A stretch of DNA of 64,000 nt from a virus. Each line of letters begins with the position of its first letter. Position 1 is the stretch's first letter. Of the stretch, positions 1 through 64,000 are shown piece by piece. Below the pieces are notes generated by a model. That model saw nothing but the letters and a program-made list of their open reading frames with translations. It was not told where the DNA came from and ran no database searches. Made by a program: the position numbers and the translations under genes. The stretch lies in IMG/VR virus record IMGVR_UViG_3300050343_000163. One strand, given 5' to 3'.

Positions 1-523
1 ATACATCCTCTTTATCAAAGATCTGATCAATACATTCAGCAATAATTTCAACTATACCATCTGTAGATGGAGTTTGACCCATAATAGATCCACTAATGAA
101 TTCAGTCCAAGAAGGATACTTCATAATAACACCAAGTTCATCATTTAGCATGATTTTAGGGTCATGTCCTTCTGGTTTGCTGACTTTAACCTCAGTCAGA
201 TTCAGATTATACTTAACTTGCGTTTTTTCGTCATCTTTGCAAGTTACATTCATCTGTACAATTTCACCAACAGATACAGCACGAATTTGAAGGAAAATAT
301 ATTCCAAATCAAACATTGCTAGATCTTCTAGTTTAATTCTTGACTGAATACAACCCTTTAAAAGAGACTTAACAGATTTTTCAATTTCTTTTTCATCTTG
401 TGTTTCTAAAGCTATTAGAAGTACCTTTTCTTCCTTTACAACAAAAGGACGATATCTCAATTTTTTCCCATTAGAAGGAATTTCCAACTCATAAGTTGGG
501 AGAACAACTTGTGGCAACGCCAT
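1..523 (-). CDS. gp26: Baseplate hub subunit, T4 gp26-like (runs off the window start)
   Basis: Manual translation from ATG at 523: MALPQVVLPTYELEIPSNGKKLRYRPFVVKEEKVLLIALE...DLEYIFLQIRAVSVGE; typical gp26 N-terminus; usual synteny. Confidence 0.85.
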   Translation of the reverse strand, partial: MALPQVVLPTYELEIPSNGKKLRYRPFVVKEEKVLLIALETQDEKEIEKSVKSLLKGCIQSRIKLEDLAMFDLEYIFLQIRAVSVGEIVQMNVTCKDDEKTQVKYNLNLTEVKVSKPEGHDPKIMLNDELGVIMKYPSWTEFISGSIMGQTPSTDGIVEIIAECIDQIFDKEDV

Positions 524-542
524 TATATTAACTCCAAGGTCA

Positions 543-550
543 TATTTATA
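543..550 (-). promoter_or_regulatory. T4-type late promoter TATAAATA for gp26
   Basis: tatttata on + strand, 20 nt upstream of the gp26 start. Confidence 0.75.
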
Positions 551-556
551 TTTAGC

Positions 557-600
557 GACTTTTTCAGACGAAAAATATCGGGAATTTTTTTCCCACTTTT
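557..600. repeat. A/T-tract element, copy 1 (related to 4344-4387)
   Basis: GACTTTTTCAGACGAAAAATATCGGGAATTTTTTTCCCACTTTT aligns with GACTTTTTTTACCAAAAAATTGGCAGAGAATTTTTTTCACTTTT. Confidence 0.55.
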
Positions 601-626
601 ATGGAACTGAAAATTGCAATTTGACC

Positions 627-1403
627 CTACTGATCCATGGGGAAGGCATTCACCATTCTTGACGCAAGATTTTTATTACCAGTCACAGCTACTTCCCTCT
701 TAAAGTTCTCTAGTCGTTGCTCATCTGTAAGAGGAGTAACACTTTGATATGGACCCAATCCATCACCTTTAGTAATTTGAGGAGCTTTTCTAACATCTCT
801 CATTATAGTATAATGTCTTTCATACTTGAATTGAGCTGTTACTTTTGTTATTTGAGAGGATCCAAATTGAAGTGGGATAGCATCAATTTGGTATGGCCAT
901 GCTTTCTCCATAACATAAGTGATTGGTTTTCTTTCAGTAGAAGAATCTTTTCCAGCCTCTGTCTTTGTAATATAAATGTCACACGCATAGTCATCTTTGT
1001 AACCGACTCTCATTACTCTATTAGGACTTAATACATTTCCTTTTTCTTTAATATTATTGTTATCCATACCACCAATAATAACATAATACCAAGCATTTAA
1101 AGCTTTCAAAATGTTTAAGTTAGCATCTAACATAAATGTAAGAGAAAATTCTGTAAACACTCTTGTGTGTGGATAATCTACAGCACCAAGACCAGTGACT
1201 AATCCAACTTGTGTTCCAGTTGCAGTATTTGAGTTAGGCAATTGTGCTTCTTCACAAAAAATCTCTAACAAATCAGGATTGAAGAAATCAGCTGGAGAAA
1301 CACCTCCCTTAGAACCTTTAAATTCTACTAGAAAGTTATTACTAAATGAAAATCCGCCTTGACGACTGACCTGAGATAAAAATGAAGTAATTCCCGCTGC
1401 CAC
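627..1403 (-). CDS. Tail-tube-like baseplate protein (gp54/gp19-like)
   Basis: 258 aa, GTG start; CEEAQLPN...YPHTRVFTEFSLTF and AWPYQIDAIPLQFGSSQITKVTAQFKYE resemble the tail-tube fold; lies between gp26 and gp4. Confidence 0.6.
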   Translation of the reverse strand: MAAGITSFLSQVSRQGGFSFSNNFLVEFKGSKGGVSPADFFNPDLLEIFCEEAQLPNSNTATGTQVGLVTGLGAVDYPHTRVFTEFSLTFMLDANLNILKALNAWYYVIIGGMDNNNIKEKGNVLSPNRVMRVGYKDDYACDIYITKTEAGKDSSTERKPITYVMEKAWPYQIDAIPLQFGSSQITKVTAQFKYERHYTIMRDVRKAPQITKGDGLGPYQSVTPLTDEQRLENFKREVAVTGNKNLASRMVNAFPMDQ

Positions 1404-1434
1404 GCTAAATACCTATGTTGGATCATTTATATTT

Positions 1435-1866
1435 ATGGCGTACTCTGGGTATTTTAAACCTAAAAACCCTCAGAAGTACCGTGGCAACCCGACAAACATT
1501 GTTTACAGGTCGCTATGGGAACGTAAGTTCATGGTGTTCTGTGACAATAACCCTTCAATATTACAGTGGGGAAGTGAAGAGATTATTATACCATACAGAG
1601 CTCCTGATGGTAAGGTGAGGCGATACTATCCAGACTTTTATATCAAAGTTCGTGAAAAGTCTGGTAATCTTGCGAAGTATATTATTGAAGTAAAACCCAA
1701 AAAACAAACACAACCACCGAATGAGAAAAATAAACGAACTGCCTCATATCGTAATGCTGTATTAACATACGCAAAGAACCAAACTAAATGGTCTGCTGCT
1801 CGTGAATATTGTGAAGATAGGCAGATGAACTTCTTAATATTAACCGAGGATCATTTAGGAGTATGA
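1435..1866 (+). CDS. gp4: Head completion nuclease (TnsA-like PD-(D/E)XK)
   Basis: MAYSGYFKPKNPQKYRGNPTNIVYRSLWE...YYPDF...IIEVKPKKQT. Confidence 0.92.
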   Translation: MAYSGYFKPKNPQKYRGNPTNIVYRSLWERKFMVFCDNNPSILQWGSEEIIIPYRAPDGKVRRYYPDFYIKVREKSGNLAKYIIEVKPKKQTQPPNEKNKRTASYRNAVLTYAKNQTKWSAAREYCEDRQMNFLILTEDHLGV

Positions 1867-1869
1867 CAA

Positions 1870-2559
1870 ATGACAACAGGATTCGCCGCTATACAGCGCA
1901 ACAACGTAAATAAAGAACCAGGATACAAAACATTATTTGAAAAAGTCTCCGCTAAAACAAACGGAGAAAAAAAATCACTTGCATGGTATAGAAATGCAGT
2001 GAAATCAGAAGCTAGTAGTTATAAGAAAAATTTTAGTAAGTATATATTAAATGAAAAGAGTGACAGAGTAGGCGCTGCTGATGAACAAGATGCAAATGAA
2101 TTGCGTCGATACACAGTAGCAGGACACCTTTATATGTTTGAGTATAAAGCAAAGATGAAGTATCTTCCTTACTATGATAGGTTTCCTTTAGTGTATGCAA
2201 TCAAAGCAGCAGGTAAAACTGAATTTTGGGGTGCTAACCTACATTACTTGTCACCAAAGAAGAGAATTATAGCTACTAAAAAATTAATGCAGGGAAGAAT
2301 TGACATTCCTAAGAGATGTTTCCATAAATACCTAAGTTCACATGTAGAAGGGTTATACCTAGATCTATCTTCAAGTGAATGGGATACTGCAATCCTATTA
2401 CCAACAGAAGATTTTGTAAAAAATGTCAACGGCATGGTATTTCCAATAGATAAATCTGAAGTATGGAAAGATACTGATGAGAATTTCTACGATAAAATCC
2501 GAGGTCAAAGACTAGTGAAAGGATATGGAACACCACAATCCAAGGAAATGAGTAGATGA
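1870..2559 (+). CDS. gp2: DNA end protector protein
   Basis: LYMFEYKAK...LPYYDRFPLV...FWGANLHYL motifs; follows gp4. Confidence 0.85.
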   Translation: MTTGFAAIQRNNVNKEPGYKTLFEKVSAKTNGEKKSLAWYRNAVKSEASSYKKNFSKYILNEKSDRVGAADEQDANELRRYTVAGHLYMFEYKAKMKYLPYYDRFPLVYAIKAAGKTEFWGANLHYLSPKKRIIATKKLMQGRIDIPKRCFHKYLSSHVEGLYLDLSSSEWDTAILLPTEDFVKNVNGMVFPIDKSEVWKDTDENFYDKIRGQRLVKGYGTPQSKEMSR

Positions 2560-3713
2560 ATAAACCTAAACAAGAAAAACAATGGTTCTGGGATTTTATC
2601 CAAGAATACGTCCTCGGGACAGGTGGTTTTGGTTCCGATGAAATTATCAAAGAGCAACAAGAGAAACAAGCAAAAGAGGAAGGATACGATAGTGCCGCAG
2701 AATTTAATGTTAATTCTAGAATTAAAAGATTAGATTCACCTAAAGAAAATTATACATCTTCCAATATTCTAAAATATCCTAATGCTCAGACTATTGGTGA
2801 GCAGAGTGACTATGTATTGTTTCAGTTTAAAAAATATAATCCACCATTTCAAAAAAGATCTAAAAAAGCATTTGGAGTCGAAGGTAATAACCTCAATATT
2901 AATACCGAGGAAAAATTAGGAAATTATCTTGGAAAACCCTATGATTACAATCAAGTTGGTGAATATACAGATGCTGGAGAGGATTATCCATCTGTCATAA
3001 TGTATATGCCAGAAGATATTTCTACTGGTTTCAGAGGTAATTGGGGTGGTAAAGCATTCAGTACAGTTGGTGCAGGTATTTTAAGAGCTGCTGGTCAAGA
3101 AGGACTAGGTGCCAAACTTGCTGGAGGTTTTGGTACACTTAATGGTGCAGCAGAAAGAGCTCTTGGTCTAGCATCTGCTGCAGTTTTACAGAAGTCTGTT
3201 CAAAAAGCTGGTGGTGATCAACTTACTAAAGATGATATTTTTGGATCAATATCTGGGGCAATCATGAATCCCAATACTGAATTGATGTTCCAAAGTGTTG
3301 ACATGAGAAACTTTGCTTTGAAATTCAAATTAGTTCCAAGAAATGCAGGTGAATCTAAAGAAATTAATAAAATCATAAAAGTATTCAAAGCATGTACTTT
3401 ACCACGCCGTGATCCTGAACAAGTAATGGGATTTAATGATCCAGGTAAACCGATAAACAAGGGAATTGTGTCTGCATTTATTGGTGTACCAAATCTTTGC
3501 AGAATTTCTTTTATGCGTGGAGCAACTGAACATAATGTTCTTCCAAGATATAAAATGTTAGCTGTTACTGAAGTAAGTGTAAATTACACTCCTGATGGAG
3601 CATATGCTACATATAGAGATGATGGTCAACCTGTTGCCATCGAATTAACACTTAATTTTCAAGAAACAAAAATCAACTTTGCAGAAGAAGTTCTCTCAGA
3701 CTCTGTTCGATAA
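2556..3713 (+). CDS. gp48: Baseplate tail tube cap
   Basis: NPNTELMFQSVDMRNFALKFKLVPRNAGES, VNYTPDG, IELTLNFQETK. Confidence 0.8.
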   Translation: MNKPKQEKQWFWDFIQEYVLGTGGFGSDEIIKEQQEKQAKEEGYDSAAEFNVNSRIKRLDSPKENYTSSNILKYPNAQTIGEQSDYVLFQFKKYNPPFQKRSKKAFGVEGNNLNINTEEKLGNYLGKPYDYNQVGEYTDAGEDYPSVIMYMPEDISTGFRGNWGGKAFSTVGAGILRAAGQEGLGAKLAGGFGTLNGAAERALGLASAAVLQKSVQKAGGDQLTKDDIFGSISGAIMNPNTELMFQSVDMRNFALKFKLVPRNAGESKEINKIIKVFKACTLPRRDPEQVMGFNDPGKPINKGIVSAFIGVPNLCRISFMRGATEHNVLPRYKMLAVTEVSVNYTPDGAYATYRDDGQPVAIELTLNFQETKINFAEEVLSDSVR

Positions 3714-4345
3714 TGTATTTTTCAATCATACCAGATCTCGCTTACGACGAGAAACCAATCAACTCTCCTTTTTCAACATCAGATTTTACAGTCGCGAAGA
3801 ATTTTTTTCGTAGATATAAAATCAATGATGATATCTTTTCCAATGTTGTTTACTTTAACAAGTATGCAATCAAAGATGGAGAACGTCCAGATGTTTTAGC
3901 TAGGAATTTTTACGGAAATCAATTTTATGATTGGGTAATTCTTTTGACTAACAACATGGTCAACGCACAGTATGATTGGCCAATGAATAACTATGAACTC
4001 TATAGAGTATTAGAGCAAGAATTTGATGATCCATACAGTCAGATCAATCATTATGAAATCAAACAATCGATGGGACACTATGCTGCTGGTTTACATGTTG
4101 ATCAAACATTTTACAATGGACAGCATAAATTAAATATCGATGGTGTCATGACATTAAAAAACGGCAATGAGATTTGTAGTCCCATTACCGTTGCAGAATA
4201 TTATCAAGAAGAAAATGATAAGAAGAGAGAAATATATCTTCTTAAAAAACAATACTTACAATCTTTTGTAGATGATTTCAGAAAACAAAATCTATACAAA
4301 AAAGACACCAACTATATTAGTCAGCGTCTAAAGAAAACTGGTTGA
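3713..4345 (+). CDS. gp53: Baseplate wedge subunit
   Basis: MYFSIIPDLAY...IKDGERPDVLARNFYG...DWVILLTNN...DWP...EENDKKREI. Confidence 0.88.
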   Translation: MYFSIIPDLAYDEKPINSPFSTSDFTVAKNFFRRYKINDDIFSNVVYFNKYAIKDGERPDVLARNFYGNQFYDWVILLTNNMVNAQYDWPMNNYELYRVLEQEFDDPYSQINHYEIKQSMGHYAAGLHVDQTFYNGQHKLNIDGVMTLKNGNEICSPITVAEYYQEENDKKREIYLLKKQYLQSFVDDFRKQNLYKKDTNYISQRLKKTG

Positions 4346-4387
4346 CTTTTTTTACCAAAAAATTGGCAGAGAATTTTTTTCACTTTT
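4344..4387. repeat. A/T-tract element, copy 2
   Basis: Similar to 557-600; sits at the convergence point after gp53. Confidence 0.55.
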
Positions 4388-4508
4388 CACAGATTTGATT
4401 ATCGAATTTCGTCTCTAGTTTTGCGACTCGTGTGAGGAGAACTAGGTTGTCTGCCTCCACCTGATCGAGACGCTTACGTAGTGCCTCGATCATTTCTTTT
4501 TTCTTCAT
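4380..4508 (-). CDS. Small coiled-coil hypothetical protein (42 aa)
   Basis: Manual translation MKKKEMIEALRKRLDQVEADNLVLLTRVAKLETKFDNQICEK; start abuts the upstream stop. Confidence 0.55.
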   Translation of the reverse strand: MKKKEMIEALRKRLDQVEADNLVLLTRVAKLETKFDNQICEK

Positions 4509-4702
4509 TAGTTAAGTTCATAACAAGCTGATCGTGCCAACTCTGGATTCTTTTTCAGTGCTCGATGCACATGACCATGAACATCTGTTTCTAAAGTATG
4601 ATGTGCATTAGTATGGACTACTTGAATCAATCCTAAGGTTCCAACAAAAGTTAAGTTTAAAACTGTAACTGGGTGAAAGATAACCTCAAACACTTTCTTC
4701 AC
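4508..4702 (-). CDS. Hypothetical small membrane protein
   Basis: 64 aa with an N-terminal hydrophobic stretch; coupled to its neighbours. Confidence 0.6.
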   Translation of the reverse strand: MKKVFEVIFHPVTVLNLTFVGTLGLIQVVHTNAHHTLETDVHGHVHRALKKNPELARSACYELN

Positions 4703-4857: not shown

Positions 4858-4858
4858 A

Positions 4859-5785: not shown

Positions 5786-5858
5786 AGATTACCTCGGATT
5801 TAATCGGATTTGGTTTGTGTATTGGGTCGGAACCCAATGGTGCCCTCATCACTTGAAC

Positions 5859-5887
5859 ATAATAACAGGCAAGGGGACGGGCGTCAA
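5859..5887 (-). promoter_or_regulatory. Sigma70-like early promoter for gp32
   Basis: TTGACG-N17-TATTAT on minus strand. Confidence 0.75.
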
Positions 5888-9965: not shown

Positions 9966-9980
9966 GGATAAGTAAGTTAA

Positions 9981-10148
9981 TCACTTTTTATAAAGTTGAC
10001 CACGATAGCAGAATGTGCCATGGGTCTCTTTAGATTCTACACTACCTGTATCATACTTAACACCACGATATGTAGTGTGAAGAATCTGAGCGTCGTGTAG
10101 AGCAGATCTCTTGATGATCTGCTTCTTGATTTGATTAAGTGTGTTCAT
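9981..10148 (-). CDS. DUF4278-like small protein (55 aa)
   Basis: Manual translation MNTLNQIKKQIIKRSALHDAQILHTTYRGVKYDTGSVESKETHGTFCYRGQLYKK; repeated YRG motifs; RBS GGAG. Confidence 0.75.
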   Translation of the reverse strand: MNTLNQIKKQIIKRSALHDAQILHTTYRGVKYDTGSVESKETHGTFCYRGQLYKK

Positions 10149-10183
10149 GAGTTGACTCCTGAAGAAGTAGGGTGGTTAGTCCC

Positions 10184-10365
10184 CGTTCCTTCAGTCGTTT
10201 GCGTCCCAAGGGTAGCATTCAGGGGTTGATTCCTTCATGACCTCAATCAATTCCACCTTATATTCGGGGGGAATATTCTCGTTTGTCCTCATCCGAAGCA
10301 TAACTGCATCAGCTTGAGCACATGTGAGTGATGAATAGAATAATAATTCTAGCATGGGATGAACG
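10184..10365 (-). ncRNA. Glutamine-II (Downstream-peptide)-like aptamer, copy 2, with an ORF in its loop
   Basis: CGTTCATCCC...GGGACGCAAACGACTGAAGGAACG; outer CGTTC/GAACG and CCC/GGG pairing. Confidence 0.65.
10191..10355 (-). CDS. 54-aa peptide nested in the aptamer loop
   Basis: Manual translation MLELLFYSSLTCAQADAVMLRMRTNENIPPEYKVELIEVMKESTPECYPWDAND. Confidence 0.6.
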   Translation of the reverse strand: MLELLFYSSLTCAQADAVMLRMRTNENIPPEYKVELIEVMKESTPECYPWDAND

Positions 10366-10368
10366 GCT

Positions 10369-10415
10369 CCGTTCCGCGACTTACTTGCGTCCCACCCTAA
10401 AGTGGGATGAACGAT
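10369..10415 (-). ncRNA. Glutamine-II (Downstream-peptide)-like aptamer, copy 1
   Basis: ATCGTTCATCCCAC-TTTAGG-GTGGGACGCAAGTAAGTCGCGGAACGG; starts at the predicted TSS. Confidence 0.75.
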
Positions 10416-10421
10416 GGTATA

Positions 10422-10450
10422 AGCATACCATACTATGTATGCTTTGTCAA
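10422..10450 (-). promoter_or_regulatory. Sigma70-like promoter for the riboswitch transcript
   Basis: TTGACA-N17-TATGCT. Confidence 0.75.
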
Positions 10451-10469
10451 CCTGTATTTCTTAATACAA

Positions 10470-10742
10470 TTAGTTTCCTGCTAAGTAGAATGCTTCACCC
10501 TTAGCTTTACAAACACGACGTACCTCAGCATCATAAACAGGTATACCTAATTCTCCACCTGTAATTAAATTCTTTGCAAACTCCCACGCTTCTCTGAAGC
10601 GTCTAAATTTATAAACTTGATCATATGTTTTAGCAGACACAAGCACACCATCACTTCTCCATAGTCTCATCGTATGCCACACAAGTGGATCATCAATTCG
10701 TCTATAAAAAATTGCCCAGTTTCCTGTTTGTGATGCGCTCAT
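10470..10742 (-). CDS. Conserved cyanophage hypothetical protein
   Basis: 90 aa; coupled start/stop. Confidence 0.65.
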   Translation of the reverse strand: MSASQTGNWAIFYRRIDDPLVWHTMRLWRSDGVLVSAKTYDQVYKFRRFREAWEFAKNLITGGELGIPVYDAEVRRVCKAKGEAFYLAGN

Positions 10743-52980: not shown

Positions 52981-53393
52981 TATCTATCGTCAACAGCACG
53001 AACTTCTGAGTTGTGAACATTGAACTCACCACCAGGATAACGCTTCTTCAGTTTGTTGACGTTGGTTTCAATTACCTCATCGAAGGATATATCAAGTGCC
53101 ATTGTAGCTTGAGCAACGTACCACATAACATCACCCAACTCAATGATAAGATGCTCACGATTATCTTCGTTCCACGGTTTTCCTTGGAAGACCATCTTCT
53201 TAATGATCTCAAGGAACTCACCACCCTCAGCATTAATTCCAACCCCAGCAGTAAGAAGTCTCTCAATATTGGCACCTTGTCGATCAAGATCACCAATACG
53301 ATCAGCAAAGTCAACAAAGTTTGTAGAAGCGTCTGAAGTAACTGCTGAAACAAATTCTTCATAGCGTTCAAATTTAATAGTCATACGTTCCAC
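52980..53393 (-). CDS. mazG: MazG nucleotide pyrophosphohydrolase
   Basis: GINAEGGEFLEIIKK...ELGDVMWY...NVNKLKKRYP. Confidence 0.93.
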   Translation of the reverse strand: MERMTIKFERYEEFVSAVTSDASTNFVDFADRIGDLDRQGANIERLLTAGVGINAEGGEFLEIIKKMVFQGKPWNEDNREHLIIELGDVMWYVAQATMALDISFDEVIETNVNKLKKRYPGGEFNVHNSEVRAVDDR

Positions 53394-54766
53394 TCGGCAA
53401 ATTTAGATAGTCTAGATTGTGTGTCAGCAAATTGCTGGAAGTCCTCACCAGGAGCTTCTTCATTGATACCAATAGCTGAGGCATCATCAGCAACATCATA
53501 CAGCCTCATCTTCGATCTGTCAATTCCCACCATGAATTTTCGTGAGGTAACGATGTCTGAGTATCTGTTTTTAAGTTGTTTGACCATGATGCGACCTTGT
53601 TGTTCCAACTCCTCAGTAGAGATAAGGGCAAACATAAAATCAGCAGTGGCAGGAAGACCAAAAGACTCAGAAGTATCGGTAAGATCTGGATCGCTATTGC
53701 CAAAACCAGAACGAGTGGTCTGAGTAGCACTAACAATAGGGACGTTATGTTCCACAGCAAGACCCCGAAGCTCCTCAGCAATCGCCTTAACATAGGTATA
53801 CGAGTTAACAACGGCACCTTTGTACCTCACGCTTGCACATATATTTAAATAATCAATGAATATAAGATCTGGTTTAAAATCTTTTTTTAATCTGAGATCG
53901 CTTAGAAGTCCTTTAAAATGTCCCACATGTGCAGAAGCTGTTGGATACTCCTTGATAATAAGTTTGCCCTGAGTTTTCCTAGCGATCTCATTAACCTTAC
54001 TGGTAAAAAGAACCTCAGGTAATTCTGTAATATCTTTTACAGCAACGTTTAAAAGATTTGCGTCAATTCGTTCAGCAATCTTTTCCTCTGCCATCTCACA
54101 TGTAATGTAGAGAACGTTGTACCCCTGTGAGAGAGCGGCACCAGCTGCATGGCACATGAATAGAGACTTCCCGACACCTGTACCAGCAAGAGCGACATTG
54201 AGAGTCTTGTTAGAGATACCACCTTTCGTGATAAAGTTAAACTTTTCAAGATCAAAGGGAACCTTCTCTTCTTTGCGATGGTAGAATTCATATCTGTCTG
54301 TTGCTTGTTCAATATAATCATGTCCTATGTGTTCGTCGAACGATACCGCCAAGGCTTCTTGGAGTATGGAGGGTATCGCATCTCTCGAAAGTTTTTTATC
54401 GCCTCCATCTGCGATCTTGATCGAGGACATAAGGGCGAGATAGATTGCTCTGTCTTGACACCATTTTTCTGTTGCATCGAGGAGCCACTCTTGGTCAACC
54501 CATTCGTCTGATAAGGAGGATACTGTCTGTACCGAACTTTGAAACGATTCGTCAGTAAGGTCATTACGATTTTGTAAGTTAATCGTAAGAATTTCTTTAG
54601 TAGGAACTTTGTCGTACTTAGAAGAAAACTCGGCAATCTCCTCAAAGATAATCTTCTCATGATAATTCTCGTAGTATTCTGCTTTGAGAAATGGGACTAC
54701 CTTTCGATAATACTCCTCGTTATGTAGGAGGTTTCTGAGGATAGTTTCTTCAATCCGTTCAATCAT
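53381..54766 (-). CDS. gp41: Replicative DNA helicase
   Basis: ALAGTGVGKSL, FIDYLNIC, SATQTTRSG, ESFGLPATAD, KQLKNRY. Confidence 0.97.
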   Translation of the reverse strand: MIERIEETILRNLLHNEEYYRKVVPFLKAEYYENYHEKIIFEEIAEFSSKYDKVPTKEILTINLQNRNDLTDESFQSSVQTVSSLSDEWVDQEWLLDATEKWCQDRAIYLALMSSIKIADGGDKKLSRDAIPSILQEALAVSFDEHIGHDYIEQATDRYEFYHRKEEKVPFDLEKFNFITKGGISNKTLNVALAGTGVGKSLFMCHAAGAALSQGYNVLYITCEMAEEKIAERIDANLLNVAVKDITELPEVLFTSKVNEIARKTQGKLIIKEYPTASAHVGHFKGLLSDLRLKKDFKPDLIFIDYLNICASVRYKGAVVNSYTYVKAIAEELRGLAVEHNVPIVSATQTTRSGFGNSDPDLTDTSESFGLPATADFMFALISTEELEQQGRIMVKQLKNRYSDIVTSRKFMVGIDRSKMRLYDVADDASAIGINEEAPGEDFQQFADTQSRLSKFAEWNV

Positions 54767-55616
54767 TAAAATTTAACCTAGCAAAGGATTTTTCACTTAA
54801 CCTTGTTTGAATTAGTTTACCATAGTCTTCATGTAATTCGCAACCCAAATAATGTCTTTGTAATGATTTGGCAACCAAGGCAGTAGTACCAGATCCCATA
54901 AATGGATCTAATACAAGATCACCTTCTTCACTACCAGCTTTGATACATGGTTCAATTAACTCTGGTGGATACACAGCAAAGTGTGCTCCCTTGTATGGTT
55001 TAGTTTTAATTTCCCATACAGTTTTCTTACGCTTCAACCCCTTACCATCCACAGTTGATTCTTTGATAGCATTAACATCAAAATAATAATTTTGACTTTT
55101 ACTAAACAAGAAAATATACTCGTGAGATTTAGTGCATCTATCTCTCACACTCTCTGGCATTGGATTAGGTTTATTCCAAATAATATCTTGTCTTAGATAC
55201 CATCCGTCTGCTCTCATAGCAAAAGCAAACATCCAAGGAATACCAATAAGATCTTTTTCTTTAAGACCTTCTAGTTTGTTACCTCGTCTGGCACATGTGC
55301 TAGGTAAATCTTGGTTAGTTTTAGATACTGATTGTTTATGAATAGCTTGACCTTTACCTGGTCTATAGTTGTAATAACTATCACCAAGATTAACCCAGCA
55401 TGTTCCATCATCAGTAAGACAATTTCTTACCTCACGAAAAACCTTTACAAGATTGTCAACATATTCTTCTGGTGTTTGTTCCAGACCAATCTGATCTTCT
55501 TCACCACCATAGTTACGTAGACCATAGTAAGGTGGTGAGGTAACACACATCCTAGCTTTACTATCAAACTCTTTAAGAGTTTCACGACAGTCACCGTAGA
55601 GAATAGTATCCTTCAA
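54759..55616 (-). CDS. Beta-class amino-methyltransferase (N4-C or N6-A)
   Basis: TSPPY catalytic motif precedes the DPFMGSGTT SAM-binding motif; HFAVYP. Confidence 0.9.
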   Translation of the reverse strand: MKDTILYGDCRETLKEFDSKARMCVTSPPYYGLRNYGGEEDQIGLEQTPEEYVDNLVKVFREVRNCLTDDGTCWVNLGDSYYNYRPGKGQAIHKQSVSKTNQDLPSTCARRGNKLEGLKEKDLIGIPWMFAFAMRADGWYLRQDIIWNKPNPMPESVRDRCTKSHEYIFLFSKSQNYYFDVNAIKESTVDGKGLKRKKTVWEIKTKPYKGAHFAVYPPELIEPCIKAGSEEGDLVLDPFMGSGTTALVAKSLQRHYLGCELHEDYGKLIQTRLSEKSFARLNFND

Positions 55617-56302
55617 TTGATGCTCTCCTTAACAAATAGTTCTTCCATTTTACCATGATTCATACGGAATGCAGTACCACGATTACGAAGAGATTTGCCA
55701 ATCATCTTCTGTGTACGCATACGAATATCAATAGCAATCATATTATTCTCGATTGCAGTGCGAAACAAGTTCTTGTCAGTACCAATGAAACGGTATGCTT
55801 CATTGTAATGGAAGTATTCTACACCGTCACGTTTCTCAACGTCAGCAAATACTTTCACACATGCAGGAAACTTCTTAGCAAACTGATTAATCAATGTGTC
55901 CCAATCCCACATAACAATAATAACATTGCCATGACAGATAGCACAGTAGTCATCAGTGGTCACGATCTGAAGACCACGCTTATTAACAGTTTTAGTTACA
56001 GTAGATTGTCCACTCAACTCACCAATCTTTGTGGTGTGAGGGAAACCATATGTTTCAATATAATCTCTCTGGGGTACAACCCAATCACCCTCTTTAGCGA
56101 ACAGTGTTTGCTTACCACCAGCACCTTTACGTGCTGTCTTTAACTCATTGCCATCAATATCTGGTCCTGCAATGTTATTCTCTTCCAGTCCCAATTCTTG
56201 CTCGAAGGTGTGACCCACACCAGTGTTACCTGTACGGTGGGTTTTAATGTAACCACGTTCTTTGATCGCATTAAATTTTTGCTTGAACGTTATGAGATCC
56301 AT
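55613..56302 (-). CDS. Type II restriction endonuclease, MvaI/BcnI family
   Basis: Start MDLITF with RBS GAGG; GNTGVGHTFEQELGLEENNIAGPDIDGNELKTAR...TLFAKEG; RNRGTAFR. Confidence 0.8.
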   Translation of the reverse strand: MDLITFKQKFNAIKERGYIKTHRTGNTGVGHTFEQELGLEENNIAGPDIDGNELKTARKGAGGKQTLFAKEGDWVVPQRDYIETYGFPHTTKIGELSGQSTVTKTVNKRGLQIVTTDDYCAICHGNVIIVMWDWDTLINQFAKKFPACVKVFADVEKRDGVEYFHYNEAYRFIGTDKNLFRTAIENNMIAIDIRMRTQKMIGKSLRNRGTAFRMNHGKMEELFVKESIN

Positions 56303-56329
56303 GGGTAATCCTCGATGGTTGATAGACAT

Positions 56330-56362
56330 ACTATACAATGAAAAAGGGGGTCTTGCAACCCC
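56330..56362 (-). promoter_or_regulatory. uvsX terminator with embedded sigma70-like promoter for the REase
   Basis: GGGG-TTGCAAGA-CCCC plus T5; TTGCAA-N17-TATAGT with extended TG. Confidence 0.72.
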
Positions 56363-56376
56363 ATGTAGACAGCTTG

Positions 56377-57390
56377 TCAATTGCCATAGGTGAATTCTTG
56401 TTTAGCTGCTTCTTCTAGTTTTGCCATCACTTCTTCAGTGAAATACTTCTCAGGACTTGAGAGAATAGATTTAGGATAAACAGAAGATTCACCAACCTTA
56501 ATACGATTACCAACCCGCTGGAAGACCCCGTATTGTTCACCCAACTCCAATAACCCGTAATATTTGTCCAGTCCACGGTCGTCAAAAAATAGACGTGTCT
56601 CAATCTTACTACCCTCCTTAGTTAAACGTGATTTCTTTGCTTCACACTTGATGATGTTACCTACCAATTCAGTACCATCTTTCTCTTTCTTTTTACCAAG
56701 ATAGATGATAGTAGATGCAGCATACTTAAGACCTGTACCACCACCCATTTCTTTCATCGGAACATAGGAACCGATAACATCATATGTATGGTTGGTAACA
56801 ATCATAGGAACTTGTGCTTGACCCAGTTTAAGTGTAAGCACACGAAAGGCACCCTTGATCAACTGACTCTTAGTCATGTCCCTGACCTGCTTATCGTTAG
56901 CAACGTCTTCCATCTCCTTGTTAGTTGAAAGCATACCAAGAGAATCTAACACAAACATCATAGGTTCACGTTTGTCTTTAGGTTCTTTCATATACTTGTC
57001 AACGATACGACAAGCTTGAGTCCTGAACTCTTCAATAGTTGAGACAGGAAACAAAACCATGCGTTGAGAATCAATACCACGCGACTCAATCATGTCACGG
57101 GAAATGGCGGATTCAGTTTCAAAATAAATGACGCCACCTGTAGGATTATCGCGGAGGAAATTACGAACGACACTAAGAGCAAAAAAAGTTTTTCCAGTGC
57201 TTGATTCTCCTGCAAGAGCGGTGACTTTGTTTGAAGGAAGACCTCCATACAACGAACCACTAACCAAGGCGTTAAAGATATAACTGCCAGTATCAACGTA
57301 ATCAGTAATGTCGCCAGCAGCGACTCCTTCACTAACCAAACCAGCAAATTCATTGCCACTATCTTTAATTACAGAATTTAAGAATCCCAT
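56377..57390 (-). CDS. uvsX: RecA-like recombinase
   Basis: [32 protein letters not shown]. Confidence 0.97.
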
Positions 57391-57554: not shown

Positions 57555-60040
57555 TCAAAGAAACTCCCAATGCTGATAGTCTTTTGATGCTGCCATCCAA
57601 TGCATTGTAGCACATTCTTCAGAGGTTCCAAGAAACTCTTTTCAAATTGTGTTTGGTAATCCACATACTTCTCAATACCAAACTCTTTTGGTAATTCACC
57701 AAAGAAGCTAATTACATTCTCATGTAATGGGTTTGGTGTTTTGAGATACATGAACTTAACCTTCTCACCTTCCTGTATCAAGGCATGTTTATTTTCTACC
57801 TTATGCTTTTTCACATAATGATTATACAGGAGAGCACCCCTCACATGGATTGGGGTTCCTTTGGAATAGATCTCCGTAGGGTGACGGTACTTGGCAAGGT
57901 TGTTAACTCCTCTGGGAAAGGCAACTTCTTCGTAGGGACGTTCCCTCGTTTCTGTTCGCACAACATTGATGAAAGTGATAAGTTCATCATTTGTGTTGCC
58001 GATAATAATCTTAAACGCTGCATATAACTTGTCTCTAAAATACGCTGGTGTCGATGACCTAGCGGTTTCAAGACCCATGATTTTCATCTTGGGTTCTTTA
58101 TATCTAACACCCTCACTGTCCCATACGTTAAGAATGTAACGCTTCTTTGCAGTCCAGATACCACGATCAGCGATGTTCTCACGCTTCATACTCATCTTTT
58201 GTTCATACGCCGATACATACGACGCAAGTTCTTGATATGAACGTTCGATAAAAGGTTCCAGTTTCTCTTCACAGATCTTGTCAAGTAAACCAACAACTGC
58301 TGCTTTATCACCAGACTTATGACCAAGAAATTTATTAACAAGAGGTCCGAGATTAAGATAGATTGAGTCAGTGTCGGATGCAATGACATAATCCTCCTTT
58401 TCAGTGGAGAGCAGTTTATTTAGGTATTCATTCATGCGGTTTTCAATCCAACGAATTGATACCTGACCTGAAAGAGTAATAGCTTCTGCATTAGCAAGAC
58501 GATAATACCTGAAGTGTTCGTTGCCGATAGCACCATAAGCAGAGTTCAAAGAGATCTTCTTTGCCATCTGAATATTATTACAACGGGCGATCTCTTTCAT
58601 GAGTTCAACAGTAGGAGTCTTCTCGTACTGTTGCTTTGCTTTGATCATCCGCTTCTTGAAGATGACACGAGAGTCATACATCTTCTTCATCATCTGAGGA
58701 AGAAACCCATGCTTCTCTTTTGTGTACTGTGCGCCATTAGCACACACAGCATACTCGCCGTCAATGTTTATCTCCTTACGAAGTATTCTATCAACCGTAG
58801 CTTCTGGATGTCGTTTGTCCTTGAGAGTTTCGGGAGAAATGTTGTACTGCATAATGAGGTGAGGATACAAAGAGTTGAGATCAAAAGACACAACCCAATC
58901 ATAGAATCCAGGCTTCGGTTCTTTGACATATGCCCCCGCATACTTTTCAGATTTATCGTTTTGTGTCTTAGGAGGGATAGCAATCTTACGCCTAAGAAGT
59001 TCACAGTAAATGTAGTTGTCCCACATACGAACCTGTGAGAATACATCCTCATAGTTTACCTTAGCATCATATGCCATGGTGTATGCAAGTTCAATCAACT
59101 TCATCTTGTCATCTAGTTGATCTACCAGACGAACGTCATGGATGTTGTAATCAATAAATTTTTGCCAGTCCTTCTCATAGAACTCTTTGAATGTATCAAA
59201 CTCAGAGTGATCTAGTTTCTTAGATCCAAGTTCAACAAAAGCAATATGATCTAGACGATACGATTCTTGGTTAGTATAAGTAAACTTCTTATACAACTCA
59301 AGATAGTCTAGAGTAGAAATTCCAAGAGTGTCAACTGCTAATTGTTTTCTACCTTTAATATAAATCTCACGCTGAGAAACAAGTTTCCAAGGAGACAATA
59401 GCTTCACAAACTTATCACCAAGAATACGTTCAATACGATTACATATGTAAGGCATATCAAACAACTGCACGTTCCATCCAGTAATTACATCTGGAAAATT
59501 CTCCTGCCAGTATTCAAGGAATGCACCCAACATACCTTCCTCTGATCGGAAATGCAAGTAGTCCACCATGGGGTCTTTGTTATTGTATGGACGTGCCCCA
59601 AACACAATAATTCGACCAGTGAAACTATCCTTGATGGATATAGCAAGGATTTCTTGATCGGCAGTTTCAATATTAGGAAATCCGTTTTCAGCAGCGGTTT
59701 CAATATCGATGGTAAATACACGGATCTTTGTGCTGTCAAACTTAAGTTCCTCTTCAGGATGCTGCTCAGCTATGTATTGATATAAAAATCTAGAGTTACC
59801 ATATATTTTAAATTCCTCTACCTCCTTATACTGTTTTATAAAATCTCTCGCTTCAGTGATAGAACCAAACTTATGTGGTTCCACACAATCTCCTTCTAGT
59901 GTACGCCACTCTGAATAATTTTTACTAGGCAAATACAGCGTAGGGTTGAAAGGAACCCTCACGCTGTAACGATTGCCATTCTCATAACCACGCACAAGCA
60001 GACGATTACCTGCTTGCTCAACACTAGTGTAAAAATTCAT
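57551..60040 (-). CDS. gp43: Family B DNA polymerase, uninterrupted
   Basis: DIET, SFDLNSLYP, KISLNSAYG, SDTDS, KKRY. Confidence 0.98.
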   Translation of the reverse strand: MNFYTSVEQAGNRLLVRGYENGNRYSVRVPFNPTLYLPSKNYSEWRTLEGDCVEPHKFGSITEARDFIKQYKEVEEFKIYGNSRFLYQYIAEQHPEEELKFDSTKIRVFTIDIETAAENGFPNIETADQEILAISIKDSFTGRIIVFGARPYNNKDPMVDYLHFRSEEGMLGAFLEYWQENFPDVITGWNVQLFDMPYICNRIERILGDKFVKLLSPWKLVSQREIYIKGRKQLAVDTLGISTLDYLELYKKFTYTNQESYRLDHIAFVELGSKKLDHSEFDTFKEFYEKDWQKFIDYNIHDVRLVDQLDDKMKLIELAYTMAYDAKVNYEDVFSQVRMWDNYIYCELLRRKIAIPPKTQNDKSEKYAGAYVKEPKPGFYDWVVSFDLNSLYPHLIMQYNISPETLKDKRHPEATVDRILRKEINIDGEYAVCANGAQYTKEKHGFLPQMMKKMYDSRVIFKKRMIKAKQQYEKTPTVELMKEIARCNNIQMAKKISLNSAYGAIGNEHFRYYRLANAEAITLSGQVSIRWIENRMNEYLNKLLSTEKEDYVIASDTDSIYLNLGPLVNKFLGHKSGDKAAVVGLLDKICEEKLEPFIERSYQELASYVSAYEQKMSMKRENIADRGIWTAKKRYILNVWDSEGVRYKEPKMKIMGLETARSSTPAYFRDKLYAAFKIIIGNTNDELITFINVVRTETRERPYEEVAFPRGVNNLAKYRHPTEIYSKGTPIHVRGALLYNHYVKKHKVENKHALIQEGEKVKFMYLKTPNPLHENVISFFGELPKEFGIEKYVDYQTQFEKSFLEPLKNVLQCIGWQHQKTISIGSFFE

Positions 60041-60294
60041 TCAAGACATTCAATATAACGAGCAAGGAGTACCTTGCTTGGATTAGTCACTACAGTAATG
60101 TCAGAAGATCTAACATTAAACTCAGTCTCCGATGAGTGAGATGCCCAAGGAGTTAGTTGACCTTCACAGTCTACCAGATAAGGTTTGATTAACCACACAT
60201 CAGGGTCACCTGATAAAGTGTCCCCCTCAGTAGGTTCTACCTGAGCGATGATCCACTCATTCGCTAGCTTCAGCAGGTTCGCTTTCAGTTCCAT
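60037..60294 (-). CDS. Small beta-fold protein, paralogue 3
   Basis: LIKPYLV...LTPW...FNV...TNPSKVLLARY. Confidence 0.65.
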   Translation of the reverse strand: MELKANLLKLANEWIIAQVEPTEGDTLSGDPDVWLIKPYLVDCEGQLTPWASHSSETEFNVRSSDITVVTNPSKVLLARYIECLE

Positions 60295-60670
60295 CAGTTA
60301 CCTCAAAGAAAATATCTTTTTGTTCAAGTCCGACCTCCTTGAGTTTTTCAGTGTAGTTATCAAGAATATTATTATCTGGATATACAACACTAATAATGTG
60401 TTCCCCACTAATTCTATGTTCTTCTACAGGAGAAAAAGGACACCAACGAGTATAGTTGATAGGGATAGTTCCATTTGTATTAACATCTCCAAGTGACAAA
60501 ACATATGGATATAGCATACGATATCCAACTACTTTTTTATCTTCGTCACGAACATCTCCAAAGAGGCAAAGAACACTCTGACTCGTGGTTAAATTAACAA
60601 TCCTAATATTGTGATTAGTTCTTAGTGGTTGCTGTTCAGTTTGTTCTGTTGATTCAATTTGCTCAGTCAT
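60257..60670 (-). CDS. Small beta-fold protein, paralogue 2
   Basis: LYPYVL...RWCPFS...HRI...VYPDNNILDNY. Confidence 0.7.
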   Translation of the reverse strand: MTEQIESTEQTEQQPLRTNHNIRIVNLTTSQSVLCLFGDVRDEDKKVVGYRMLYPYVLSLGDVNTNGTIPINYTRWCPFSPVEEHRISGEHIISVVYPDNNILDNYTEKLKEVGLEQKDIFFEVTDGTESEPAEASE

Positions 60671-61014
60671 AATACCTCTGGATTAATAGTTTCACCTTCT
60701 TTCTTTTCTTTAATTTTATTTTCATATGCGTTTTGCAATCCTGGTTCAGGAGTGCTAATTGTCATCACACTATCATATGGAATTTTAAATTGCCAATCTG
60801 GAGTGTAAGGATTCCATTTACTAAACCTGACTTGGTATTCCATACCATGCTGTTCAGTAAGATATTGAGGAGTGCCATCATCAAGGTTTAAGATGTAAGG
60901 TTCTTCCATCAAAAGACAAACACCTTTACGGTCTTCACCTTCTTCATCAAAGATTTCTTTTAACTCAGTAATGATTCGATCTCCCGTTTTCAATGTAACG
61001 ATAGATACTGCCAT
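60667..61014 (-). CDS. Small beta-fold protein, paralogue 1
   Basis: LKTGDRII...EEPYIL...KWNPYT...FKI...STPEPGLQNAY. Confidence 0.7.
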   Translation of the reverse strand: MAVSIVTLKTGDRIITELKEIFDEEGEDRKGVCLLMEEPYILNLDDGTPQYLTEQHGMEYQVRFSKWNPYTPDWQFKIPYDSVMTISTPEPGLQNAYENKIKEKKEGETINPEVL

Positions 61015-61034
61015 AGCTATAAGCGTTTAATTTT

Positions 61035-61076
61035 ATTATACCACCAAAAAAAGGAGGAGTCAACCTGTTTGTTGGC
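61035..61076 (-). promoter_or_regulatory. hsp20 terminator with embedded sigma70 promoter
   Basis: TTGACT-N17-TATAAT; the -35 lies in the 3' arm of a GAGGAG...CTCCTC hairpin followed by T7. Confidence 0.78.
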
Positions 61077-61107
61077 AGGTGCTCCTCGCGGCGACGATAT
61101 GATTTAT

Positions 61108-61515
61108 TTAGAAGTGTTTTTTACGCTGTTGTTTTTCTGGTAGTTCTTTTTTCAATGTGATTATTAATAGACCATTATTGAATTCTACGGTCTCGACTTC
61201 TACATCGTCTGACATCTGCCAGTTACGTGCAAATGTTCTATATGAAATTCCTTTATGTGCGTAATTTTTTTCTTTATCTGCTGGTGCTTTTTTAGCGGAT
61301 ACTGTTAAGACGTTTCGTTCCGTCTCCACATTTAGATCCTCTTCTGAAAATCCAGCAAGAGCGACCTCCAATATTGTTCTACCACCAGGTCCATTAATGA
61401 CATTGTAAGGAGGGTAGCTTGTTCCTGCTCCAGCAAGAGATTCAAGTCTGTGGAATGTTTCATCGAACCCGAGTGAAAATGGGGAAAGTTGTTGCCATGC
61501 ATAATTGTTAACCAT
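61108..61515 (-). CDS. hsp20: Small heat shock protein
   Basis: SYPPYNV, LEVALAGF, HKGISYRTFARNWQMSD, NGLL. Confidence 0.95.
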   Translation of the reverse strand: MVNNYAWQQLSPFSLGFDETFHRLESLAGAGTSYPPYNVINGPGGRTILEVALAGFSEEDLNVETERNVLTVSAKKAPADKEKNYAHKGISYRTFARNWQMSDDVEVETVEFNNGLLIITLKKELPEKQQRKKHF

Positions 61516-61622
61516 TGTCCTTAAATAAGCGACGTTTATATGTGACCCGTTAGGCATCACACTCCTATTTAACGATAACAGTTTAAACGTTAATAACGGT
61601 TTTCCTTATTAAAAATTGCGGT

Positions 61623-62054
61623 TTACTCTACCTCTTGTTTCTTACGACCGATATTATATTTGGACTCAAGCGTCCATTCACCTTTCTCCTTAAAGGAGAG
61701 AACTTTAATTTGATTGAGTGGTGCTAGGTCAGCAATTTTTTCCTGACTCTCTGTATTAATATTAACCAATCCCCAGTCAACTAAAAGTTGAACGATACGG
61801 TTACGACGTTGTGCATCATTCAAAGAAAAATTTGTGTTCTTGCCATCAAGGGCAAACAACTCTTTGAAGTGTACAATAAAATATCTTCCTTGCTTATGGA
61901 GAATGTGGCAGGATTGATAAATCTTTTTTTCTTTACGTGATGCAACACCAATCCTTGTTAATGTTTCTCTCACTTTTAAAAAATCATCTGGTTCATTTAG
62001 GACGACTTCAACCATATCGGTTTGTCTCCATTGAATCTCAATTTCACCGCTCAT
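61623..62054 (-). CDS. regA: Translational repressor
   Basis: DDFLKVRETLTRIGVAS...QSCHILHKQGRYFIVHFKELFALDG. Confidence 0.97.
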   Translation of the reverse strand: MSGEIEIQWRQTDMVEVVLNEPDDFLKVRETLTRIGVASRKEKKIYQSCHILHKQGRYFIVHFKELFALDGKNTNFSLNDAQRRNRIVQLLVDWGLVNINTESQEKIADLAPLNQIKVLSFKEKGEWTLESKYNIGRKKQEVE

Positions 62055-62433
62055 GTTTACCACCTTTACTCAATGCTTTTGTAATATGATTTAATTGATC
62101 CTTGGTGAGAATTCTAAGAGCTTGTAGAGCTTTATCGTCATTATAACCATAATACTCTTTTACTAACTCAAGATAGTCAATAGAATCTTTTCGTGCCCAA
62201 GGAGAAAAACGTTTCCTAGGTTTCACACTATTTAGTAAAAAATCATACTGTAACTTCTTTGGTAGATGAGGATTCTTATTCAGTTCATTGACATAAAGAA
62301 TAGTATCAGTAAAAGAAGACAGACATCTGTTAACAATATATGGGGGATACTTTCTCTCAGCATCTATATCGTCATCAAGAATATTCTTTTTGGATTGGTT
62401 GATTGAGTAGAGATAGTCTTTCAGTTGGTACAT
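62044..62433 (-). CDS. gp62: Clamp loader small subunit
   Basis: YPPYIVNRCLS...LQYDFLLNSVKPRKRFSPW...YYGYNDDKA. Confidence 0.93.
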   Translation of the reverse strand: MYQLKDYLYSINQSKKNILDDDIDAERKYPPYIVNRCLSSFTDTILYVNELNKNPHLPKKLQYDFLLNSVKPRKRFSPWARKDSIDYLELVKEYYGYNDDKALQALRILTKDQLNHITKALSKGGKHER

Positions 62434-62599
62434 TGTCGTTCCAGTGTCTTACGTTTCCAGCGATGATAAAACAGTTAGTAATTAATAACTGAGTAAAAAT
62501 GATAGTTCTAATGGTGCATATGATATTATCATATCTCTTAGTTTTATTATCATTGAATGATCCTAAGGAGTATTTCCAGATCTTCCAAAGTTCTTTCAT
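62375..62599 (-). CDS. Conserved cyanophage small protein
   Basis: IWKYSLGSF...TNCFIIAGNVRHW. Confidence 0.65.
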   Translation of the reverse strand: MKELWKIWKYSLGSFNDNKTKRYDNIICTIRTIIFTQLLITNCFIIAGNVRHWNDNVPTERLSLLNQPIQKEYS

Positions 62600-62602
62600 A
62601 GA

Positions 62603-62746
62603 TCATTTAAATGTTGCAGTGACGCCCACTACAGTACAACCAGGATTACGAGCAAGAGCGACCTTGCGAGCATCTTGATAATCAACAGCGATCACCTCTT
62701 CCTTGAAGACGGTGCCTGCTTTGTATAGGGTGACTTCACACTTCAT
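62603..62746 (-). CDS. Conserved cyanophage small protein (47 aa)
   Basis: Manual translation MKCEVTLYKAGTVFKEEVIAVDYQDARKVALARNPGCTVVGVTATFK. Confidence 0.65.
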   Translation of the reverse strand: MKCEVTLYKAGTVFKEEVIAVDYQDARKVALARNPGCTVVGVTATFK

Positions 62747-63575
62747 AATTAAAAAGGACTAGTTCCTTACGAGCTGCTTGATCTGTATTATAACTCCCCA
62801 CGCTCCTCATGGTGTAAGTGTGTGCAAATTCAGCAGCTGTCCACTCATCGAAACGATCTCTGATAAGTTGTGATGAATTATAAGACACAAGTTGTGGACC
62901 AATAAATCGATCACACTTGACAGCAAAATGATCATGGTTAAAACCACTATGCATATTACCTTTCTTACCATAGAGATTAGAACCAATCTCATAAGGAGGA
63001 TCTAGATAAGTGAAAGCATTCTTATCATCAGTAAGAAGTTGTTCGTAACTGAGGTTAGTGATCTCCCACTTAGAAATCATTCCTGAATATTCAGGGAGTT
63101 TATCAATGCCTCGCATCGAGAAATTGCTATCTGACGCTTGCTTGCTGAAGGAACTGGATTCAGTGAGACCAGAGAAAGAGCACTTATTAACAATATAAAA
63201 ACACACAGCAGCAGATAGGTTGGATGTTGAATCATCGTTTAGTTTCTCCTTAGCTTCTAGAAATAATAGTTTTGCTGATACTGGTTCTGGGTGACGATTC
63301 TTGAGTTGGACTAACTGGTCACGAAGTTCTTGTCCTTGATCTTGAAGCACTCGCCAAAAGTTATAGAGTGGTCCATACAAATCGTTTACCCAGATGTTTA
63401 GGTGTGGATACCTTTTGCCAATTTCTAATGCTACAGATCCACCACCAACAAATGGTTCACGATACTCAGTGTAATCTTTCAGGTTAGGAATGTACTGAAA
63501 GAGTTTACTCAGGGCACGACTCTTCCCGCCTGGATACCTGAGGGGTGTCTTCAATGACTTCAATGTCTGGGGCAT
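62736..63575 (-). CDS. dam: DNA adenine methyltransferase (Dam/D12 class)
   Basis: LRYPGGKS, EPFVGGGSV, YLDPPY. Confidence 0.9.
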   Translation of the reverse strand: MPQTLKSLKTPLRYPGGKSRALSKLFQYIPNLKDYTEYREPFVGGGSVALEIGKRYPHLNIWVNDLYGPLYNFWRVLQDQGQELRDQLVQLKNRHPEPVSAKLLFLEAKEKLNDDSTSNLSAAVCFYIVNKCSFSGLTESSSFSKQASDSNFSMRGIDKLPEYSGMISKWEITNLSYEQLLTDDKNAFTYLDPPYEIGSNLYGKKGNMHSGFNHDHFAVKCDRFIGPQLVSYNSSQLIRDRFDEWTAAEFAHTYTMRSVGSYNTDQAARKELVLFNYEV

Positions 63576-63762
63576 GGTATTTAAGGTATTCGCGAAAGAT
63601 CATTTTCATTTCACGCTCTGTCATTCCACAATGAGCAGCAGCGTGGGGTAGGTTCATTGTAGCATGAAACAATGCTTCATTTGCTTCCTGAACATTTTCT
63701 GGTGTTGTTTTGACTTTGGATGTATGCCCAGTGTCTTGCTGATTCGTTTTCAAGTCTTTCAA
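63505..63762 (-). CDS. Conserved cyanophage hypothetical protein (start uncertain)
   Basis: KTTPENVQEANEALF...NLPHAAAHCGMT. Confidence 0.6.
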   Translation of the reverse strand: MKDLKTNQQDTGHTSKVKTTPENVQEANEALFHATMNLPHAAAHCGMTEREMKMIFREYLKYHAPDIEVIEDTPQVSRREESCPE

Positions 63763-63820
63763 TCATTTCCTCCATCATTAATTGTTTAGGTTCTTTTTCA
63801 ATAAATTTGAGTAGTGTCAT
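63677..63820 (-). CDS. Small hypothetical protein (47 aa)
   Basis: MTLLKFIEKEPKQLMMEEMIERLE...; ATGA overlap with gp44. Confidence 0.45.
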   Translation of the reverse strand: MTLLKFIEKEPKQLMMEEMIERLENESARHWAYIQSQNNTRKCSGSK

Positions 63821-64000
63821 TTGAATTCACAACCCATCATGATCTCTGTTAAACATGCTAACAGGTTGATCTCTTGATCAGGAACAATAGGAATACTGTT
63901 CATGTATTTGGCGATGATAAGAACTGCTTCAGGAATAGAAGCAGGTTTCAATACAACATACAAGCTATCGTAAACTTTACGCATCACCATTGTAGGATCG
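63817..64000 (-). CDS. gp44: Clamp loader large subunit, 3' end only
   Basis: Manual translation ...IPEAVLIIAKY...DQEINLLACLTEIMMGCEFK*. Confidence 0.9.
   Translation of the reverse strand, partial: DPTMVMRKVYDSLYVVLKPASIPEAVLIIAKYMNSIPIVPDQEINLLACLTEIMMGCEFK

Follow-up and report, generated by a model that had tools for sequence, protein, structure and literature searches.

A 64,000-nucleotide stretch of viral DNA (IMG/VR record IMGVR_UViG_3300050343_000163; hereafter the window, by which we mean the whole stretch) contains not a single CCGG between its positions 1 and 64,000. Its best nucleotide matches by blast (S-CAM4 and ACG-2014j, ~77% identity) and the genes that Pfam identifies in it (psbA, psbD, gp32, PhoH, ThyX, uvsX, gp41, gp43 or DNA polymerase B, and those for baseplate and tail proteins) assign the window to a T4-like cyanomyovirus (Kyanoviridae) that infects marine Synechococcus. 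The void itself is a known phenomenon, textbook restriction avoidance. We consider it likely that here it forms an old, nearly family-wide footprint of such avoidance, from which a CCGG-cutting endonuclease can be inferred; it is independent of the MvaI-like restriction-modification cassette that the phage itself carries between uvsX and gp41. What the analysis adds to the known phenomenon is a coding constraint on Pro-Gly pairs, which ties the CCGG ban to a CCWGG-type methylase.

The original prediction held that CCGG is completely absent where dozens of copies would be expected, and an exact count bears out both halves of this statement. The 64,000 bases hold 231 copies of CCG and 163 of CGG, and none of CCGG; a second-order Markov model expects 27.5 copies (Poisson P(0) ~1e-12), a first-order model 47 and base composition 90. 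A stricter null, in which synonymous codons were shuffled among 83 open reading frames (ORFs) so that protein sequences and overall codon usage were retained, gives 49.0 +/- 6.8 copies and no fewer than 25 in any of 300 shuffles. With a count of zero, the void extends to every flanking context and not only to CCSGG, as had also been proposed. The words named in contrast do occur: GGCC 10 times, GCGC 21, CGCG 9, GATC 296 and CCWGG 48, the last including CCAGG at 3441 (earlier placed at 3442), 7582 and 16262. GGCC, CGCG and GCGC are themselves depleted, to 0.40, 0.34 and 0.51 of expectation, with none of them absent, and are therefore not neutral controls.

In each of the three reading frames, the void is produced by a choice among synonymous codons that depends on the neighboring codon. 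In the window, NCC codons (Ser, Pro, Thr, Ala) stand before Gly at 0/407 and are used 419 times elsewhere; the proline codon CCG stands before a G-starting codon at 0/225, with 25 uses elsewhere; and the arginine codon CGG follows a C-ending codon at 0/124, with 19 uses elsewhere. Such a pattern could in principle be left by mutation, if a methylase of host or phage origin modified CCGG at C5 and deamination then removed the word without any selection, and C5 methyltransferases are indeed present in 44 of 401 host-family genomes. The products that deamination should leave behind are nonetheless not in excess in the window (CCAG/CTGG at 1.03–1.05 and TCGG/CCGA at 1.02–1.06 of expectation), a search of phage records turned up no C5 methylase, and the loss is complete whichever codon frame is considered, as it is across several genomes of 180–200 kb. 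Moreover, within the 43 kb of S-CAM4 that can be aligned to the window lie 15 CCGG sites, at all of which the window has another word, differing by a single base at nine; the replacements are varied and not mainly C-to-T. Mutational decay is thus almost certainly not the explanation: selection acts on the DNA word, rather than a mutation bias on its bases. The strong selection originally proposed is in this way supported by three-frame codon choice, by the lack of a deamination signature and by the restriction of the effect to palindromes.

That restriction is sharp. At or below 0.1 of expectation in the window are one of 16 four-base and five of 43 testable six-base palindromes (AGTACT, GCATGC, GGTACC, GTGCAC and TTCGAA), compared with none of 120 four-base and none of 1634 six-base non-palindromes. 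S-PM2, Syn9, S-WAM2 and P-SSM2 show the same palindrome-only depletion with other sets of words. Four-base voids specific to single lineages include CTAG in S-SM2 (0/291; here and below, paired figures for genomes and words are observed/expected counts unless given as a fraction) and both GCGC (0/57) and CGCG (0/28) in P-SSM2, and there are near-voids of TGCA in the 84-kb contig G004 (39/416) and of GTAC in S-WAM2 (43/576). The CCGG void belongs to a large set of palindrome purges, each specific to a lineage, in cyanomyovirus genomes.

Several further observations concern these words. Absent from the window are the hexamers AGTACT (0/11 against the Markov expectation, with 22 expected from codon shuffling), GGTACC (0/7, codon-shuffle 10.6) and TTCGAA (0/6, codon-shuffle 13.4), together with GTGCAC (0/8), GCATGC (0/7) and GACGTC (0/5), again relative to the Markov model; most of the window's absent hexamers are missing from its relatives too. 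S-SM2, which tolerates CCGG, keeps ACCGGT (12/10) and lacks TCCGGA (0/7.4). All the Kyanoviridae genomes sampled, namely the window, G002–G005 and seven isolate genomes, are strongly depleted in words of the form RGCY. In the window, AGCC plus GGCT stand at 33/161 and GGCC at 10/25; in S-CAM4 and G005, AGCT too is at ~0.3 of expectation. RGCY is at expectation in P-SSP7, Syn5, P60, P-SS2 and S-TIM5 and in host genomes.

Among relatives, the CCGG void is widespread. The nearest record (G001) is a metagenomic contig of 44 kb, with a uvsX 99% identical to that of the window; its first 40 kb have 0/18. Counts from whole or partial genomes of isolates give 0/92 for S-PM2 (196 kb), 1/138 for Syn9, 0/123 for S-WAM2, 0/74 for S-RSM4 and 0/67 for P-SSM2, and G004, which lacks the nuclease described below, has 1/59. 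The closest named relatives, which also lack this nuclease, have near-normal CCGG: 117/120 in S-CAM4, 118/120 in ACG-2014j and 87/109 in ACG-2014e. In a tree built from uvsX, the void covers 34 of the 44 rows, including every deep branch (P-SSM2, S-PM2, Syn9); the tolerant rows form three nested groups (the S-CAM4/ACG-2014 clade, L068/L071 and S-SM2) that require at least three changes. The simplest reading is an old, nearly family-wide CCGG ban in the Kyanoviridae, relaxed on three or more occasions. Podoviruses, siphoviruses and non-T4 myoviruses that infect these hosts keep their CCGG: 27/32 in P-SSP7, 186/197 in Syn5, 145/148 in P60, 232/235 in P-SS2 and 187/191 in S-TIM5. As for what might shield tolerant phages, no protective C5 methylase was found in G001–G005. 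A PF01555 methylase was rejected for this role, being present in S-CAM4 and not found in the tolerant ACG-2014e; for a 317-amino-acid ORF adjacent to the methylase of S-CAM4, Pfam gives no match.

The cassette of the window lies on the minus strand, between uvsX upstream (56377–57390, RecA-like recombinase, PF00154) and the gp41 replicative helicase downstream (53381–54766, PF03796 DnaB_C, in keeping with synteny). Its first gene (55613–56380) encodes a predicted MvaI/BcnI-family Type II restriction endonuclease, listed at 255 amino acids, with a PF15515 match of E 5e-38 (131.7 bits relative to a cut-off of 25, covering profile positions 2–227 of 227); homologues align from about residue 22 of the listed ORF. 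Compared with solved structures in the PDB, it matches MvaI at E 4e-17 and BcnI at E 4e-6, and its residues E60, D74, E79 and K81 align with the MvaI active-site residues E36, D50, E55 and K57. The second gene (54759–55616), whose start overlaps the nuclease stop codon, encodes a beta-class DNA methyltransferase (PF01555, N6_N4, E 9e-57), with SPPY at residue 27 ahead of FMGSG at residue 239. An SPPY near the N-terminus that precedes FMGSG is the mark of beta-class N4-cytosine enzymes such as M.MvaI, and the phage methylase is probably of the N4-cytosine type.

At this junction the relatives, L001, L003–L005, L013, L021 and L036 among them, show three states: no insert (in S-CAM4, or L013, and in L036, uvsX adjoins gp41), the methylase alone, and nuclease plus methylase. 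The second state is found in 18 relatives, in which a methylase homologue of 61–75% identity is the sole insert between uvsX and gp41. In two loci, L004 and L021, the methylase is 94–95% identical to that of the window and the nuclease only 54–58%, a discrepancy that suggests that the nuclease gene was exchanged or diverged rapidly. A homologue search also returned thousands of close marine methylase homologues from ocean metagenomes, whose generic names gave no clue to specificity.

It had been proposed that this nuclease is itself the cause of the void, cutting CCGG or CCSGG in a genome that is immune by design because it lacks the site. The gene is present in the window, as its PF15515 match attests, and a CCGG-free genome necessarily lacks CCSGG. 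The void, however, does not follow the gene. By tblastn the nuclease occurs in one of 50,697 GenBank phage records, and PF15515 has no match in the seven isolates, of which five are void (S-PM2, Syn9, S-WAM2, S-RSM4 and P-SSM2); conversely, nuclease-bearing loci with normal CCGG include L096 (8/8.9), L097 (18/15), L101 (13/12.9) and L107 (9/11.4). Among loci with at least five CCGG expected, 11 are void and 8 are not when the nuclease is present, and 27 are void and 8 are not when it is absent (Fisher p = 0.21), so that relatives without the nuclease are equally void and no association is seen, a result that refutes the link to the nuclease and leaves the depletion itself untouched.

The properties of the enzyme point the same way. 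Characterized MvaI/BcnI members cut the five-base targets CCWGG or CCSGG, not CCGG (PMC1874612, PMC3089477), and a CCSGG enzyme would account only for those sites flanked by C or G. The phage enzyme is closer to MvaI, and its carriers purge CCWGG, not CCGG. The presence of a cognate methylase makes immunity by design unneeded. Finally, the 48 CCWGG in the window, 38 of them forced in a manner explained below, mean that the genome is not immune to its own, probably CCWGG-directed, enzyme; its own target would be missing only in the trivial case in which that target were CCSGG. Causation by the phage's own nuclease is therefore very improbable. The void is independent of this enzyme, which is a clean negative for the idea that a phage's own restriction enzyme emptied its genome of the word.

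What connects the ban and the cassette is Pro-Gly coding, and only indirectly. Because Pro-Gly is always coded CCN-GGN, each such pair creates either CCWGG or CCSGG; since CCSGG contains CCGG, a CCGG ban turns every Pro-Gly into CCWGG, and a CCGG-free phage cannot also be CCWGG-free. The window codes each of its 38 Pro-Gly pairs as CCW-GGN, and these make up 38 of the 45 coding CCWGG (48 overall). In the two frames in which CCWGG can be avoided, 7 sites are found versus 22 expected. The 95-kb cassette carrier G005 is more extreme, with all 98 Pro-Gly pairs coded CCW-GGN and 2 avoidable CCWGG versus 61 expected. Void genomes without the cassette show no depletion of avoidable CCWGG (69 vs 64 expected in S-PM2, 32 vs 31 in G004).

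When loci, which are related by descent, are grouped by gene content, avoidable-frame CCWGG stands at 16/84 = 0.19 of expectation where the nuclease has at least 80% identity, at 33/76 = 0.43 where it has 55–80%, at 7/45 = 0.16 where a methylase homologue is alone between uvsX and gp41, and at 254/355 = 0.72 where neither gene is present. Close relatives of the window are likewise split by the cassette: CCWGG is at expectation in L008 and L009, which lack it, and at about half of expectation in L001–L005, which have it. The greater similarity of the nuclease to MvaI than to BcnI and the purge of avoidable CCWGG in its carriers make CCWGG most probably its target; at the level of single residues, the contacts to the central base give no call between W and S from the sequence. 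A CCGG-free phage would thus purge only the CCWGG that it can avoid, under pressure from cutters of its own or of others, and its Pro-Gly sites would depend on protection by the methylase. The Pro-Gly constraint would account for the presence, in CCGG-free cyanophages, of a methylase of the CCWGG type, whose family is abundant in ocean metagenomes.

A viral contig (L112) offers a different arrangement, with a solitary MvaI/BcnI-family nuclease at 9980–10681 (E 2e-37). A methylase for it was found neither in the locus by tblastn nor among the five neighboring ORFs scanned. L112 has CCWGG at 0/19, all 12 of its Pro-Gly pairs coded CCS-GGN, and a normal CCGG count (39/39); it appears to be immune by design to cutting at CCWGG.

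What, then, imposed the ban on CCGG? In the scenario that we favor, the lineage would have met an endonuclease cutting unmethylated CCGG during infection, and purifying selection acting through synonymous codons would keep the word out of the genome; the agent would most likely be a Type II system in the host pan-genome. A ban so old, complete and family-specific would imply that a CCGG-cutting activity exists in the marine cyanobacteria–phage system. Host-family genomes do hold varied Type II systems, including the C5 methylase loci mentioned above, whose neighbors resemble BglI, EcoO109I and IceA, none of them of a CCGG type. One host genome of the 401 (G134, contig 31, locus L323) carries a chromosomal N6_N4 methylase and an MvaI/BcnI-family nuclease beside lycopene cyclase, this nuclease being only 29% identical to the phage enzyme. 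The hosts themselves do not avoid the word: marine Synechococcus hosts have CCGG at 0.88–0.98 of expectation, or about 5–7 sites per kb, so that there is no mirror signal and self-avoidance by the host is ruled out.

Several points weigh against this reading. For the host MspI/HpaII-like system originally put forward as one alternative, neither RE_HpaII (PF09561) nor Endonuc-MspI (PF09208) was found in the 401 sampled host-family genomes, the latter negative being a weak one in that its control matched no control genome. A widespread host enzyme should also press on the non-T4 phages of the same hosts, which keep CCGG. S-PM2, recorded as isolated on WH7803, is void, and ACG-2014j has normal CCGG; if the label Syn7803US103 of ACG-2014j means WH7803, which is our reading of a record that gives no host, WH7803 itself may impose no ban. 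The targets of the cassette's nuclease and methylase come from sequence statistics, and the loci grouped for CCWGG are not phylogenetically independent.

Some of the same facts can be turned toward a CCGG nuclease that circulates in the Kyanoviridae gene pool, where it would shred the CCGG-rich host DNA or exclude co-infecting phages while the family, being CCGG-free, would be immune by design. The purges of CCGG and RGCY are confined to T4-like cyanophages and are not seen in the podo-, sipho- and non-T4 myoviruses with which these share hosts; no enzyme of the HpaII or MspI family was found in the 401 host-family genomes; host DNA offers 5–7 CCGG per kb; and Kyanoviridae do carry restriction nucleases, such as that of the present cassette and the solitary one of L112. 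A search for ORFs that track the void, being present in the void S-PM2, Syn9 and S-WAM2 and absent from the tolerant S-CAM4 clade, nevertheless found no candidate gene. It returned five distinct ORFs, of which two occur in all three void genomes (a 416-amino-acid SF2 helicase and a 64-amino-acid membrane ORF) and the rest are three short S-PM2 ORFs. The 64-amino-acid ORF is ruled out as a determinant of the void, as it is present in the tolerant L068 and absent from the void L039 and L040. In addition, lifestyle could equally explain a purge found only in cyanomyoviruses: these are host generalists, and as such they would be the phages exposed to the restriction pan-genome. We judge a host enzyme the more likely source and a nuclease of the phage pool an unlikely one, though if true it would amount to doing by sequence what T4 does by modifying its bases.

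A few other features of the window deserve mention. A conserved hydrophobic ORF of 64–66 amino acids, without a Pfam match, lies at 62393–62590 on the minus strand; it occurs in most cyanomyoviruses sampled and is missing from the S-CAM4/ACG-2014 clade, and in other lineages it does not follow the CCGG state. At 62736–63575 on the minus strand is a gene for a predicted Dam-like D12 N6-adenine methyltransferase (PF02086, E 1e-32, with DPPY at residue 192), and GATC in the window is not depleted (296/314). Near the other end, at 1435–1866 on the plus strand, a small ORF encodes a putative TnsA-like PD-(D/E)XK endonuclease (PF08722, E 5e-24); situated between the tail-tube gene and those for the baseplate, it is on the opposite strand and resembles an inserted mobile nuclease.

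How does the window compare with what is known? Earlier work on restriction-site avoidance reportedly includes that of Sharp in 1986 and also studies on Anabaena/Nostoc cyanophages. Avoidance of restriction sites, that is, of short palindromes, has been surveyed in virulent dsDNA phages, in a paper without mention of cyanophages (Rusinov et al., 2018; PMC6286503). No paper on CCGG avoidance in marine cyanophages was found in a literature search, PMC6286503 and PMC2984593 both being silent on it. The window shares with phage restriction-site avoidance a palindrome missing far beyond what composition would give, a restriction of the effect to palindromes, removal by synonymous changes, and the parallel purging of several palindromes. 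It differs in that the 401 host-family genomes yielded neither of the two known families of CCGG nuclease, and in that the purge is limited to one phage family among those that infect the same hosts.

The cassette invites comparison with two characterized enzymes of its family. MvaI cuts CC/WGG, and M.MvaI methylates the inner cytosine of CCWGG at N4 (PMC1874612). The phage nuclease shares with MvaI the PF15515 fold and all four catalytic residues, retains the equivalents of the base-contacting D207, R209 and R230, and is likewise paired with an adjacent beta-class SPPY methylase. The similarity is partial, however (phmmer E 4e-17 over two stretches, ~60% of the protein), H223 and H225 are both replaced by Arg (RNRG for HDHG), and the cassette is phage-borne, between uvsX and gp41. 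BcnI (CC/SGG) belongs to the same family and is a monomeric enzyme with a five-base target that contains CCGG (PMC3089477, PMC3203586); its match to the phage nuclease is much weaker (E 4e-6), and carriers of the phage nuclease deplete CCWGG, some of them having CCSGG sites (6 in L096, 4 in L101). Between them, L112 and the window represent opposite outcomes of the Pro-Gly constraint: the former is free of CCWGG and keeps CCGG, whereas the latter is free of CCGG and keeps its forced CCWGG together with a methylase.

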